64,000 nt of DNA, taken from Octopus vulgaris. Lineage: Eukaryota. Under the pieces are notes generated by a model, which saw nothing but the letters and a program-made list of their open reading frames with translations, had not been told where the DNA came from and did not search any database. The stretch spans positions 100,936,001-101,000,000 of the forward strand of contig OX597822.1 in the NCBI GenBank assembly GCA_951406725.2, given 5' to 3'. Made by a program: the position numbers and the translations under genes. Of this stretch, positions 53,018 through 62,017 are shown in pieces (positions within the stretch are counted from its first letter, which is position 1; each line of letters begins with the position of its first letter).

Positions 53018-53302
53018 AAAAACGTCGCCCTTTTCAAGCCTAGCCACGTTCACGGGCCCGGTTTCCTGGTTTCTGTGGCGTATGTGTTCTCCCGCAGCGT
53101 TACTCAAGAAACAGGAAGAGATAGTGAGAGAAAGTTGTGGCGAAAGAGTACAACAGGGGTCGCCACCACCCTCTGCCGGAGCCTCGTGGAGCTTTTAGGT
53201 GTTTTCGCTCAATAAACACACACAACGCCCGGTCAGGGAATCGAAACCGCAATCCTCCGACCGCGAGTCCACTTCCCTAACCACTGAGCCATTGCGCCTC
53301 AA
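53018..53302 (-). mobile_element. SINE family B variant with a third type of tail
   Basis: TSD CATGACTGTATTATACG at 53001-53017 and 53303-53319. Confidence 0.88.
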
Positions 53303-53734
53303 CATGACTGTATTATACGTATGAAAAATTAAAGCCAAGCGGTGGTGTTTATCTACGTCGAAGAAGCGCAAATGGGGTAACATCTACATTGAAGCTTGGT
53401 TATTTATAAGTAATACTGAGCATGCCGTTAATGCATAAAGGGGAAAATGTAGGAGACATAACCAAAATTTGATATATATACGAGTTGAGATGTAATACAG
53501 ATTGAAGAGAAAAAAAAAATGAAAAAGAAAGGTGTCTACATTCATTCTACTTTCTGGAAGGAAATTTCTTATTTAAAAGATGAAAATGTGAAATGAGATC
53601 AAGGTCATTTTCGTGTCTGGTATTACATTGTTCAGCATCTTCTTTTAACAAAGTAAAATGTTGAGGGAGATTTGGCGGCTATTTCTAGTGGAGTGAACGA
53701 CTTGTACAGGCTCTCTGCTGACTCCATGTTTTGT

Positions 53735-53885
53735 CTTCTTCTTCTTCTTCTTCTTCTTCTTCTTCTTCTTCTTCTTCTTCTTCTTCTTCTTCTTCTTCTT
53801 CTTCTTCTTCTTCTTCTTCTTCTTCTTCTTCTTCTTCTTCTTCTACTATTTCTTCTTCTTCTTCTTCTTTGTTCTTCTTCTTCTT
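53735..53885. repeat. (TTC)n array
   Basis: Directly visible. Confidence 0.97.
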
Positions 53886-54169
53886 CCAATCAGGACTCAC
53901 GCCATTAGCCACAAAGAATAATCTCTAATTCGAGCCTACTCAAAGCTACTAAGAATGCGTATGGCAACTTGAAGGTCCACCCACCACACGCGATAGACTG
54001 GCGGTTGCACGGGCGCGAAAGCTACGTTATCTTCATTCCGTAACGGTGACTTTTAACGGGTGGAGAGCTGAACCATCCTGGGGTACAGAAGATTCGCAAT
54101 CTAGACTAGGGTCTGAAAGTTTACCACACCATAGTGGGTTACACCATGGTTCCTCTGCTTTGTGGTAGA

Positions 54170-54357
54170 AATAGGAAGAAAGAGTGAGAGAAAGTTGTGG
54201 GGAAAGAGTACAGCGGGGTTTACCACCTTCCCCTGCCGGAGTCTCGTGGAGCTTAGGTGTTTTTGCTCAATAAACACTTACAATGCCCGGTCTGGGAATC
54301 GAAACCGCGTTCTTACGACCGTGAGTCCGCTGCCTTAACCACTGGGCCATTGCGCCT
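54170..54357 (-). mobile_element. SINE family B 5' part
   Basis: Homology. Confidence 0.82.
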
Positions 54358-55548
54358 GTACTGTTGTTGTTTAGTCCCAGGCCGAAGCAAACTGTGTAGG
54401 CCTATGATCAGAAGCATTTCATCCGTGACCAACTCACCCATTTTTTTTAGATGTAGGGCTACATTGTCCAATGCGATCATTTTGTTTTTGCTTAAAACAT
54501 CGGAGTATTATTTGATGGATCTGGTTTGTATTGCAAGTCCAGAGACTGCTCAGAGACTCCTTTGATGGGATTGTTGCAGTGGGTGACTATAGAAGTGTTT
54601 GCTCAAAACACGCTTTGTTCGAACATCATTTCTTTCGCCCACGTTCTTGAGGTTAAGAAACCATTGATGTGTGGAAGCCAGTACACACCCGATAGAATTG
54701 GCTAACGAAAACCTTACGTGTGAAAGCTGTGTTGAAAAAAGGATTCAAGCTTGTTGTTTAGCTTTGATCGAGATGACCGTTAATCAAAGACATTTCATCC
54801 TTGACCTTCTCGCTTTTCCTTTCAAATCAAGAACTACACTATTCAAATGTCGTCTTACTTTATCTCTATTAAAACAGTAGGGTGTGATATGAGATTTTGT
54901 TACTATTTCTAGCCTGTCAAGTGGCCTCATTAATGCCTCCCTCGTTGGCGATAATTGAAACAAGTTGATTGCTATCCCTTTCGAGATGGAGAAGTTTGGG
55001 TCAGTGACTGCCCTGTTTTTGAAGTGCGTGGGGATTGGATATGTTGCCGTGTTATAGTAACTAGGCGTTGATCCATATACAAAGAGAAATATTGTTGTTC
55101 ACGTTCAGATAAGCCTTGCATGGTAAGTCTATGATCAAAAGTATTCTATCTTTGACCATCTCGCATTGTTTTTGATATTACATTGTTCAATATGAACTTT
55201 ATGTTTTAAGATAGTAATGTGTAACCTTGAGGGAGAATGTGTAATCTTGAGGGACAACAGTCAGCTGAAAAAAAAAACAATGTTAGGAAATGCAAGTCTT
55301 TACATGCTTTACTGAATACTGAAGTTATCGTACTTTGAAACCCTGTGCAGATGGCGCTGAAGCAAATCAGACCGAGAAAGTGGATCCAAAGAAAAATTAA
55401 ACGCTCGCAGTCCAATTGCGGGAATCTTTCAGTCGGTAGGGTAGAAGTCTTTGATAACATACGACAAATATGAAAAAAGGGAAAGACGGTTGAGGGGATA
55501 GAGAATTACAGTAAGAATTTTTAAAACATTACGTGGAGAGAAAGATAA

Positions 55549-55968
55549 ATACTCTTTTACTCTTTTACTTGTTTCAGTCATTTGACTGCGGCCATGCTGG
55601 AGCACCGCCTTTTAGTCGAGCAAATCGACGCCGGGACTTATTCTTTGTAAGCCCAGTGCTTATTCTATCGGTCTCTTTTGCCGAAATTATAGATGTTCTA
55701 TCGGGTGTGTACTGGCTTCCACACATCAATGGTTTCTTAACCTCAAGAACGTGGGCGAAAGAAATGATGTTCGAACAAAGTAACGGGGACGTAAACACAC
55801 CAGCATCGGTTGTCAAGCAATGCTAGGGGGACAAATCCACTCACAAGGCATTGGTCGGCCCGGGGCTATAGCAGAAGACACTTGCCCAAGGTGCCACGCA
55901 GTGGGACTGAACCCGGAACCATGTGGTTGGTTAGCAAGCTACTTACCACACAGCCACTTCTGCGCCTA
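55549..55968 (-). mobile_element. SINE family A carrying an 85-bp templated insertion
   Basis: Homology; 55696-55780 is foreign to the SINE. Confidence 0.88.
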
Positions 55969-56677
55969 GTATATATATATATATAAGGTTATGAAATGAT
56001 AGGAATTTTTCGAAGGACTGTAGTTTTCTGAACATAACATGTATTTGGCATTTTGCTACGGTTTTGGGGTAGAGAGTGTTACTCACTTGCTTCGAGAACA
56101 CGTTACGATAAAATAATCTTGTAATTTTTTGCAATCCATGATAAACAATGATCGGAATAATGGAGAAAAAAAAAAGCAGAAACAAAATAAAACAAAAAAG
56201 ATTATATAACAGTTTACAGAACATTATTTTCATATTTATATATTTTGTATTCTGACAGTATTACGGAGGCTGAGTAAAATGCATTATGTGAGTATATATA
56301 GCATCTATAATTTTATAGTTACACTATGTATTAACAGACTCGACACATCACGTGAGTATCTCCAGTATTACTAATATATAAATATAATGTACCCACGCAA
56401 AATCATACTCATACACACACAGATACACAAACACAGACACACACACAGACTATATATGTACAAATATGCACACATATATTTTGCAAATACAGTAGGAATG
56501 CTGCTTGAAGCAAGAATATATTCGAGTGCTCCACAAACTAGATTTCATACGACATAACTTAATAGAATACATTGACTAACTGAATAAAAAAACAATTCAA
56601 GATCTATAAATCTATCCCCACGTTTCTCGCTTTCTTCCTATCTCTCCCTATCTTTCTCCTCTCATTCCCTCCCACTC

Positions 56678-56793
<116 letters not shown>

Positions 56794-56822
56794 TACATAT
56801 ATATATATACATATATATATAC

Positions 56823-56890
<68 letters not shown>

Positions 56891-57047
56891 AAATAAATAT
56901 AAGAGAGTGGTCACTATATTGATCACTCTAGCACCAGTTAATCCAAAAGGTTTCAACCACGAAAAATACATGTTTCCCATGAAAGCCGGTACGACTGTTA
57001 GCTCACACGGACAGGGCAAATAAAAAATAACAAAAATACAGATTATT

Positions 57048-57123
57048 TTGGGACAATTGTTTCGCTATTAATGAATTAAATGTAATATTACTTACAGTAA
57101 TCCATTTGTAGCTCTTCAGCCAA
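57048..57123 (-). ncRNA. Type I hammerhead ribozyme (array copy L1, GUC site)
   Basis: Minus strand reads TTGG-CTGAAGA-GCTA...TAGC-GAAAC-AATT-GTC-CCAA. Confidence 0.88.
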
Positions 57124-57581
57124 GACTATCTGGATGAAATCCACTCAATCACACGCCAGATTTTACCATAACGATAAATACGCGTGCGGTTCAATTGATT
57201 ACATCGGACGTTATAATTCAAATGCCCCAACCAACAGCGCGCCAAACTCTCACGGAAAACAAATACAGCATTTAGAAATAAATGCAGCATAATTATAATT
57301 AATTAATAAGGGTGAGAGAATTAGATACTAATTTAATAGTATATTTATTCCACACCAAGTGGCCTAGTGCTACGAGAAACCTGGATTATTATAATATTTT
57401 ATAACATATTATAATATTTTCACAAAATAAATATAAGAGAGTGGTCACTATATTGATCACTCTAGCACCAGTTAATCCAAAAGGTTTCAACCACGAAAAA
57501 TACATGTTTCCCATGAAAGCCGGTACGACTGTTAGCTCACACGGACAGGGCAAATAAAAAATAACAAAAATACAGATTATT

Positions 57582-57657
57582 TTGAATCAATTGTTTCGCT
57601 ATTAATGAATTAAATGTAATATTACTTACAGTAATCCATTTGTAGCTCTTCAGCCAA
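57582..57657 (-). ncRNA. Hammerhead copy L2 with altered cleavage triplet (GAT), predicted inactive
   Basis: Reads GAAAC-AATT-GAT-TCAA instead of GTC-CCAA. Confidence 0.75.
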
Positions 57658-58115
57658 GACTATCTGGATGAAATCCACTCAATCACACGCCAGATTTTAC
57701 CATAACGATAAATACGCGTGCGGTTCAATTGATTACATCGGACGTTATAATTCAAATGCCCCAACCAACAGCGCGCCAAACTCTCACGGAAAACAAATAC
57801 AGCATTTAGAAATAAATGCAGCATAATTATAATTAATTAATAAGGGTGAGAGAATTAGATACTAATTTAATAGTATATTTATTCCACACCAAGTGGCCTA
57901 GTGCTACGAGAAACCTGGATTATTATAATATTTTATAACATATTATAATATTTTCACAAAATAAATATAAGAGAGTGGTCACTATATTGATCACTCTAGC
58001 ACCAGTTAATCCAAAAGGTTTCAACCACGAAAAATACATGTTTCCCATGAAAGCCGGTACGACTGTTAGCTCACACGGACAGGGCAAATAAAAAATAACA
58101 AAAATACAGATTATT

Positions 58116-58191
58116 TTGGGACAATTGTTTCGCTATTAATGAATTAAATGTAATATTACTTACAGTAATCCATTTGTAGCTCTTCAGCCAA
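58116..58191 (-). ncRNA. Type I hammerhead ribozyme (array copy L3, GUC site)
   Basis: Same as L1. Confidence 0.88.
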
Positions 58192-58729
58192 GACTATCTG
58201 GATGAAATCCACTCAATCACACGCCAGATTTTACCATAACGATAAATACGCGTGCGGTTCAATTGATTCAAAATAATCTGTATTTTTGTTATTTTTTATT
58301 TGCCCTGTCCGTGTGAGCTAACAGTCGTACCGGCTTTCATGGGAAACATGTATTTTTCGTGGTTGAAACCTTTTGGATTAACTGGTGCTAGAGTGATCAA
58401 TATAGTGACCACTCTCTTATATTTATTTTGTGAAAATATTATAATATGTTATAAAATATTATAATAATCCAGGTTTCTCGTAGCACTAGGCCACTTGGTG
58501 TGGAATAAATATACTATTAAATTAGTATCTAATTCTCTCACCCTTATTAATTAATTATAATTATGCTGCATTTATTTCTAAATGCTGTATTTGTTTTCCG
58601 TGAGAGTTTGGCGCGCTGTTGGTTGGGGCATTTGAATTATAACGTCCGATGTAATCAATTGAACCGCACGCGTATTTATCGTTATGGTAAAATCTGGCGT
58701 GTGATTGAGTGGATTTCATCCAGATAGTC

Positions 58730-58805
58730 TTGGCTGAAGAGCTACAAATGGATTACTGTAAGTAATATTACATTTAATTCATTAATAGCGAAACAATTGA
58801 TTCAA
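58730..58805 (+). ncRNA. Hammerhead copy R1 with altered cleavage triplet (GAT)
   Basis: Mirror image of L2. Confidence 0.75.
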
Positions 58806-59263
58806 AATAATCTGTATTTTTGTTATTTTTTATTTGCCCTGTCCGTGTGAGCTAACAGTCGTACCGGCTTTCATGGGAAACATGTATTTTTCGTGGTTGA
58901 AACCTTTTGGATTAACTGGTGCTAGAGTGATCAATATAGTGACCACTCTCTTATATTTATTTTGTGAAAATATTATAATATGTTATAAAATATTATAATA
59001 ATCCAGGTTTCTCGTAGCACTAGGCCACTTGGTGTGGAATAAATATACTATTAAATTAGTATCTAATTCTCTCACCCTTATTAATTAATTATAATTATGC
59101 TGCATTTATTTCTAAATGCTGTATTTGTTTTCCGTGAGAGTTTGGCGCGCTGTTGGTTGGGGCATTTGAATTATAACGTCCGATGTAATCAATTGAACCG
59201 CACGCGTATTTATCGTTATGGTAAAATCTGGCGTGTGATTGAGTGGATTTCATCCAGATAGTC

Positions 59264-59339
59264 TTGGCTGAAGAGCTACAAATGGATTACTGTAAGTAAT
59301 ATTACATTTAATTCATTAATAGCGAAACAATTGTCCCAA
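59264..59339 (+). ncRNA. Type I hammerhead ribozyme (array copy R2, GUC site)
   Basis: TTGG-CTGAAGA-GCTA...TAGC-GAAAC-AATT-GTC-CCAA. Predicted cleavage is after 59335. Confidence 0.88.
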
Positions 59340-59626
59340 AATAATCTGTATTTTTGTTATTTTTTATTTGCCCTGTCCGTGTGAGCTAACAGTCGTACCG
59401 GCTTTCATGGGAAACATGTATTTTTCGTGGTTGAAACCTTTGGATTAACTGGTGCTAGAGTGATCAATATAGTGACCACTCTCTTATATTTATTTTGTGA
59501 AAATATTATAATATGTTATAAAATATTATAATAATCCAGGTTTCTCGTAGCACTAGGCCACTTGGTGTGGAATAAATATACTATTAAATTAGTATCTAAT
59601 TCTCTCACCCTTATTAATTAATTATA

Positions 59627-59693
<67 letters not shown>

Positions 59694-61476: not shown

Positions 61477-61701
61477 ACTCTTACTCTTTTACTCTTTTAC
61501 TTATTTCAGTCATTTACTTATTTCAGTCATTTGACTGCGGTCATGCTGGAGCACCGCCTTTAGTCGAGCAAATCGACTCCAGGACTTATTCTTTGTAAGC
61601 CTAGTACTTATTCTATCGGTCTCTTTTGCCGAACCGCTAAGTTACGGGGGCGTAAACACACCACCACAAGCGATGTTGGGGGGACAATCACAGACACGTA
61701 A

Positions 61702-61742
<41 letters not shown>

Positions 61743-61913
61743 CATATATACGACGGGCTTCTTTCAGTTTCAGTCTACCAAATCCACTCACAAGGCTTTG
61801 TCCGGCCCGAGGCTATAGTAGAAGACACTTGCCCAAGGTGCCACGTAGTGGGACTGAACCCGGAACCATGTGGTTTGTAAGCAAGCTACTTAACACAAAG
61901 CCACCTACGCCTA
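61477..61913 (-). mobile_element. SINE family A
   Basis: Homology. Confidence 0.9.
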
Positions 61914-62017
61914 TATATAATATTTATTATATATTGTTATTTATTATAAATATATATAATCCATATATATTATTTTTCATAATATATATATATTATATGT
62001 ATATATATGTGTGAATG

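Follow-up and report, generated by a model that had tools for sequence, protein, structure and literature searches.

We find that the palindrome described here is the centre of a single 2.74-kb head-to-head insertion, lying between (TA)n tracts at 56890-59626 of the 64,000-nt stretch of DNA analysed (the window), and that it belongs to a family of insertions whose two arms end at two different, fixed positions of a 534-bp repeat unit. Among the complete two-armed loci of this family, 83/91 have one short outer end (unit position 150-166) and one long outer end (280-295), while the same site is used twice in 0/91. The reading that we favour, with a probability of about 60%, is that the two strands of the target are primed at two fixed sites of the RNA and that the resulting cDNAs are joined by microhomology or by fold-back. 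The insertion itself is best explained as a hammerhead retrozyme that is not autonomous and depends for its mobility on a Penelope-like reverse transcriptase (RT) plus GIY-YIG enzyme acting in trans.

A head-to-head insertion of a 534-bp unit

The repeat unit is young; the minus-strand arm comprises 2.6 copies of it and the plus-strand arm 2.5. Unit positions are numbered from +1, the first base 3′ of the ribozyme cut. The layout is as follows:

56680..56889, no strand: left (TA)n target tract, with a few additional A/T bases beside the element end
56890..58268, minus strand: left (short-end) arm, 1379 nt, 2.6 units, from unit +386 (inner) to +162 (outer)
58128..58259, no strand: palindrome spacer, 132 bp, ordinary left-arm sequence that holds most of the third ribozyme
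58260..58268, plus strand: junction, consisting of CAATTG (the unit +387 to +392 site) and ATT, followed by unit +2
58269..59626, plus strand: right (long-end) arm, 1358 nt, 2.5 units, from unit +2 (inner) to +292 (outer)
59497..59626, plus strand: one-arm tail, ~130 nt (unit +163 to +292), at the outer end of the right arm only
59627..59690, no strand: right (TA)n target tract

An earlier note on this DNA had described arms mirrored about 58193 with a spacer of ~132 bp, and a left arm that runs to 58268. Both descriptions hold: the mirrored arms occupy 56946-58127 and 58260-59441, centred on 58193.5 and separated by 132 bp, and agreement of the left arm with the unit extends to 58268. The right arm carries a 1-nt deletion in a T run near 59441. 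There are three ribozyme sites in the left arm and two in the right, and the left arm stops (at +162) before the segment +163 to +292 that is present in the right. No ORF of 100 aa lies inside the arms, and comparison of a Penelope-like protein with the window gave no match. Dispersed SINE-like repeats and long microsatellites surround the insertion (53107-54361, 55560-55980 and 61500-61927) and are unrelated to it. About 60% of the words of the unit are also present in runs X9-X11 and X13, which are labelled as two other organisms, and run X9 covers the 534-bp unit with few differences.

Each unit closes with a hammerhead ribozyme

Every 534-bp unit closes with a type I hammerhead, built from stem I, CUGAAGAG, stem II (with a long additional hairpin) and GAAAC-AAUU-GUC; stems I and II fold as expected. 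Five copies are found at the locus:

57039..57132, minus strand: outermost left hammerhead, intact
57573..57666, minus strand: hammerhead copy in which the junction-type ATT at 57585-57587 replaces the cut triplet; predicted to be inactive
58107..58200, minus strand: type I hammerhead with intact core, from motif positions and the fold of an identical copy; cleavage predicted
58721..58814, plus strand: hammerhead copy with ATT at 58800-58802, matching the register of the left-arm variant
59255..59348, plus strand: outermost right hammerhead, intact, with the predicted cut between 59335 and 59336

In the copy at 58107-58200 (minus strand), 58188-58200 pairs with 58107-58119 as stem I, CUGAAGAG lies at 58180-58187 and GCGAAAC at 58127-58133; stem III and its loop are CAATTG at 58122-58127, and the GUC cut is predicted between 58120 and 58119. 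According to the accessible text of PMC4209133, metazoan hammerheads usually have a stem III of 2 bp and a palindromic loop. Across the family, 227/238 full units have an intact core and cut triplet. A search with Rfam at the gathering score did not detect the hammerhead.

The junction and a private ATT variant

The earlier note had located CAATTG at 58122-58127 and at 58260-58265, and both positions are confirmed. It had also proposed that the two sites pair on 6-9 nt of microhomology. Against the wild-type unit the homology is 6 bp, those of stem III, but the next three bases mismatch (ATT for the unit's TCC), leaving no 9-nt homology, and the overlap at the actual switch point is zero. Likewise, the right arm had been said to start exactly at the cleavage position; it starts near it, at unit +2, one base past the cut.

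Each arm also has one internal unit in which the same ATT stands in place of the cut triplet. Genome-wide it has three matches, all in this insertion, and the idea that it is a pre-existing family variant giving 9-nt homology was therefore rejected. The two arms carry this private ATT in mirrored positions and in register: in a register test with private variants, which is informative at this locus only, register 0 contained 0 substitutions as against 6 and 3 in the neighbouring registers. Unless it results from an assembly error, this mirroring points to copying of at least one unit in one arm from the DNA of the other. Outside this locus, private substitutions common to both arms were found in 0/29 testable cases, a count that says little, as most private substitutions are probably later mutations.

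Outer ends are paired one of each across the family

The 534-bp family has 766 candidate places genome-wide and 916 copies with an exact +292 end. We mapped 139 loci, comprising the best 40 matches (this one included) and 99 of the first 100 listed +292 ends; once L139 had been dropped as a duplicate of L077, there were 95 two-armed head-to-head and 43 one-armed insertions. Four two-armed loci and one one-armed locus that are cut by the fetched edge were left out of the outer-end counts, the one-armed locus being left out of the inner-end counts as well. Two-armed insertions account for 67/98 of those sampled by position. The dispersed copies of the unit have unique flanks and duplications, which point to mobility. 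An ORF for RT plus GIY-YIG was found neither within the 534-bp element nor adjoining it in the 139 loci, so the repeat is not an autonomous Penelope-like element.

The targets are mostly (TA)n. Target duplications of 13-16 bp can be read in five two-armed loci and are clear in L046 and L049, where the targets are non-repetitive; these two have ends at +163 and +289/+290 and duplications of 13-15 bp, and their target and element ends are without homology. The head-to-head arms, the one-end tail, the target duplications and the AT-rich targets of the family bear out the earlier assignment of the locus as a Penelope-type insertion with an inverted segment.

Of the loci whose selection did not depend on their ends, 26/28 pair one short with one long end, and where loci were anchored on +292, the other arm ends at 150-166 in 57/63. 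Another outer end occurs in 8/91 two-armed loci, two of which are +162 under a different reference. Junctions common to L077/L141 and to L031/L036 mean that the counts of loci given here and below are not fully independent. Within a locus the two arms have 33 substitutions between them in 17,491 nt, whereas comparison with other loci of the subfamily would predict 187 (57 loci), and thus both arms of a locus derive from one haplotype. It is the short-end arm that reaches further 5′ in 51/83 loci and the long-end arm in 31/83, and the lengths of the two arms are weakly correlated (rho 0.27). Many element ends carry extra ATT or ATTTT bases, which in our interpretation resemble re-priming.

A model with two primed target strands

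In the proposed mechanism, the enzyme would nick both target strands ~14 bp apart, and reverse transcription would be primed by the two 3′ ends at two fixed sites of the same RNA, uncut and either multimeric or circular. The cDNAs would extend variable distances, after which the two could be joined directly on 1-6 nt of microhomology; alternatively, one cDNA could fold back and make a sense strand that captures the other. At 56890-59626, the left cDNA would have ended on CAATTGATT and paired with the CAATTG of stem III. In favour of this, a purified Penelope-like protein nicks and extends both strands, the borders of the tail correspond to two internal RNA sites at which reverse transcription starts, the protein is a predicted dimer, and ribozyme cleavage is unneeded in vitro (PMC11167929). 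In the same work the two strands did not differ in their start site in vitro, which counts against the proposed priming (PMC11167929). The inner ends are scattered along the unit, and their junctions have a mean overlap of 1.92 nt, compared with 0.76 for random joins, across the 75 that are blunt or overlapping; 19 further junctions carry insertions and are outside this mean.

More tentatively, at rather less than even odds, Penelope-type integration in general may be an obligate asymmetric twin priming, in which a dimeric enzyme makes one cDNA per fixed site from a single RNA. If so, the inverted 5′ repeat and the one-end tail would be products of a single event, one-armed copies would have lost their second cDNA, and an RNA module with two sites would serve to write a pair of defined cDNAs into a single break.

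Fold-back probably contributes to the joins but cannot alone build the locus

Self-priming offers a different, in our judgement unlikely, origin for such insertions: a cDNA or antisense template would fold into a long hairpin, and the endonuclease would trim its ends at +160 and +290 while integrating it. Junction palindromes of Penelope-like elements have been interpreted as self-priming in the accessible text of PMC3846280, and in that of PMC8557442 the tail is ascribed to endonuclease resolution. Within the family, inner ends lie ≤30 nt apart in unit phase at 31/83 junctions, against 9.6 by permutation, and 18 of these 31 near-perfect palindromes are in the same register. The mirrored ATT would also be accounted for, as would L221, a locus of a second family (described below) with the appearance of a full fold-back copy. 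At 59/83 loci one arm could have been copied from the other. Such copying is excluded, however, in either direction at 24/83 loci, the present one among them; a folded-back target-primed strand could not have produced these loci, and self-priming would therefore need an off-target hairpin cut at two sites. The 52/83 junctions that are not phase-matched, the short A/T additions at both ends, and the mapping of the tail borders to RT start sites (PMC11167929) also stand against it. At 56890-59626 the inner ends are 150 nt apart in phase and so are not among the 31, and since the left arm has one ribozyme site more than the right while +163 to +292 is found in the right arm only, pure fold-back cannot make the locus.

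The counts thus favour two primed strands over self-priming alone. The fold-back priming invoked in the earlier note is partly supported, in the form of short-homology joins with a fold-back component: microhomology and short-spacer palindromes are both in excess, but fold-back by itself does not suffice here. Junctions in L031, L036, L052 and L103 cluster in an AT-rich self-complementary stretch at unit +150 to +200, and L031 and L036 have an identical 157/166 junction with a 6-nt overlap.

Inner ends are not generally set by ribozyme cleavage

The earlier note had linked ribozyme processing to integration, on the view that cleavage creates an RNA 5′ end which sets the turn point. The junction here, at +2, fits this view, the chance that a single junction has an end within +1 to +3 being about 1%; two other arms, in L116 and L169, end at +1 (the ends of L169 are +1 and +4), and the ribozymes of most units are intact, as given above. 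Yet among 232 inner ends from 137 insertions, three fall at +1 to +3, where a null that preserves the length distribution predicts 1.4 (P 0.18). Mapping the breakpoints of these copies against the hammerhead, a check that the note itself had suggested, placed ends at the cut no more often than chance would, and a cleavage-site hotspot is rejected as a family rule. Arms reached 407 cut sites, passing 404 and stopping at three, which argues that the template was an uncut multimer or a religated circle.

There is a mild excess of inner ends ≤20 nt either side of the cut (30 vs 20 expected, P about 0.02; by locus, 25/137 vs 18, P about 0.04), in a 20-nt window that was picked after the data had been seen. 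This excess is equally large 5′ and 3′ of the cut, and pausing at the folded ribozyme would fit it better than run-off at a cleaved end. Moreover, CAATTG is 5′ of the cut, so pairing on it presupposes uncut RNA as the template of the strand; pairing on CAATTG and a turn fixed by cleavage, the two parts of the earlier proposal, contradict each other. As the stem III CAATTG is 2 nt from the cut, a join there lands beside the cut with cleavage unneeded, and we regard the proximity of the turn to the ribozyme cut as mostly chance. Cleavage as the determinant of the turn is thus improbable: this route may account for a few percent of arms, possibly including this one, and is not the family mechanism.

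It is very improbable that errors of assembly or polishing in the tandem palindrome produced the junction or the internal ATT copies, for although the ATT motif occurs at this locus only and is identical to the junction sequence, and none of the contigs listed for four runs (in which the individual that carries the locus may not be represented) bridges the junction, the outer ends, target type and layout match those of 82 other loci with different junctions and unique flanks, and a fold-back read would have mirrored the flanks, which here differ; such an error could affect the ATT detail, not the family pattern.

Comparison with known systems

Priming of both target strands on one RNA has a precedent in the twin priming of LINE-1, which yields an inverted 5′ part, a microhomology join and a flanking duplication; there, priming of the second strand occurs at variable positions and the resulting parts are without overlap. 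In the family described here, by contrast, both sites are fixed and the arms overlap widely, and the wide overlap means that strand displacement, a circular template or two identical RNAs would be required.

Close in organisation are the metazoan non-LTR retrozymes, as described in the accessible text of PMC7229834 and of the preprint bioRxiv 10.64898/2026.07.22.740005: these too are non-coding tandem units of low GC with a type I hammerhead that has a 2-bp stem III and a palindromic tetraloop, form many dispersed arrays, and have been proposed to be mobilised by Penelope-like elements. Their units are about 300-390 bp rather than 534 bp (same sources), and the present family differs in its long extra stem II hairpin and in its two-armed insertions with fixed, unequal outer ends. 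The word 'inverted' is absent from the accessible text of PMC7229834, and in that of the preprint (10.64898/2026.07.22.740005) it appears only within a reference. With Penelope-like elements the family shares a head-to-head inverted 5′ segment, a tail that is often one-ended, target-site duplications, a preference for microsatellites and palindromic junctions, but it has no ORF, and its tail is about 127 nt against their 30-40 bp (accessible parts of PMC3846280 and PMC8557442). As in the Poseidon element PAc of Anolis, RT would start at two internal sites downstream of the hammerhead, the targets are AT-rich and cleavage by the ribozyme seems dispensable (as seen in vitro for PAc); in vitro, however, PAc showed no strand bias of start site, whereas here the same site is never used twice in 91 loci (PMC11167929).

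Retrozymes and their link to Penelope-like elements are already known (PMC7229834; bioRxiv 10.64898/2026.07.22.740005), as are the inverted 5′ repeats and the one-end tail (PMC3846280, PMC8557442), to judge from the accessible portions of these sources. The accessible text of PMC8557442 calls the origin of the inverted repeats and one-sided tails of Penelope-like elements undefined. Neither a strict one-of-each pairing nor Penelope-like twin priming is stated in the literature that we searched; part of this pattern may already be reported in the Penelope papers of 2005-2006 or in the supplements of PMC11167929 and the preprint. What the present family adds is hundreds of young natural products in which both arms are potentially long. 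Because a tandem template lets either arm run several kb, the arms can be recognised as made separately, with ends that pair one of each, and because both can be long, the models differ in predictions that can be counted. The outer-end rule offers a hint of how Penelope-type elements might prime the two DNA strands together, and the family-level pattern makes the question testable: the two strands of one target should use different RNA start sites.

Other families with unequal ends

A search for an autonomous partner gave no DNA match to the 534-bp unit in 25 GIY-YIG loci and 14 longer loci, mostly of one family, out of 6136 candidates. Loci L197-L209 represent a young autonomous RT plus GIY-YIG family, presumably Neptune-like, with many intact 781-codon frames, (TA)n targets and a cysteine-rich linker; a motif scan of its terminal repeat found no canonical hammerhead. 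In this autonomous element, whose DNA shows no similarity to the 534-bp unit, a 32-nt tail is present on the direct arm and missing from the inverted arm, in 3/3 two-armed loci among 14 fetched, and its outer ends thus follow the short/long rule too.

A second hammerhead family (L210, at G000:C1:183008325 onward, and L211-L220) is of similar build, with a GAUC loop and a long stem II, and has 315 exact long ends genome-wide. No tandem unit was found for it and one arm was used as reference; on this numbering, the ends are +38 to +41 and +137 in 3/3 two-armed loci (11 mapped), again one short and one long. One additional locus of this family, L221 (170-575), was fetched as an apparent exception: it is a long/long head-to-head insertion with almost no spacer and a deletion common to both arms, and it breaks the short/long rule and fits pure fold-back. 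Upstream, L217 runs on into a 149-residue frame that presumably resembles a Penelope-type C-terminal endonuclease, so that an autonomous element may have this repeat as its pLTR. Near 6568 of L205 (in ORF orientation) there is a third hammerhead sequence, whose build is akin to that of the second family.
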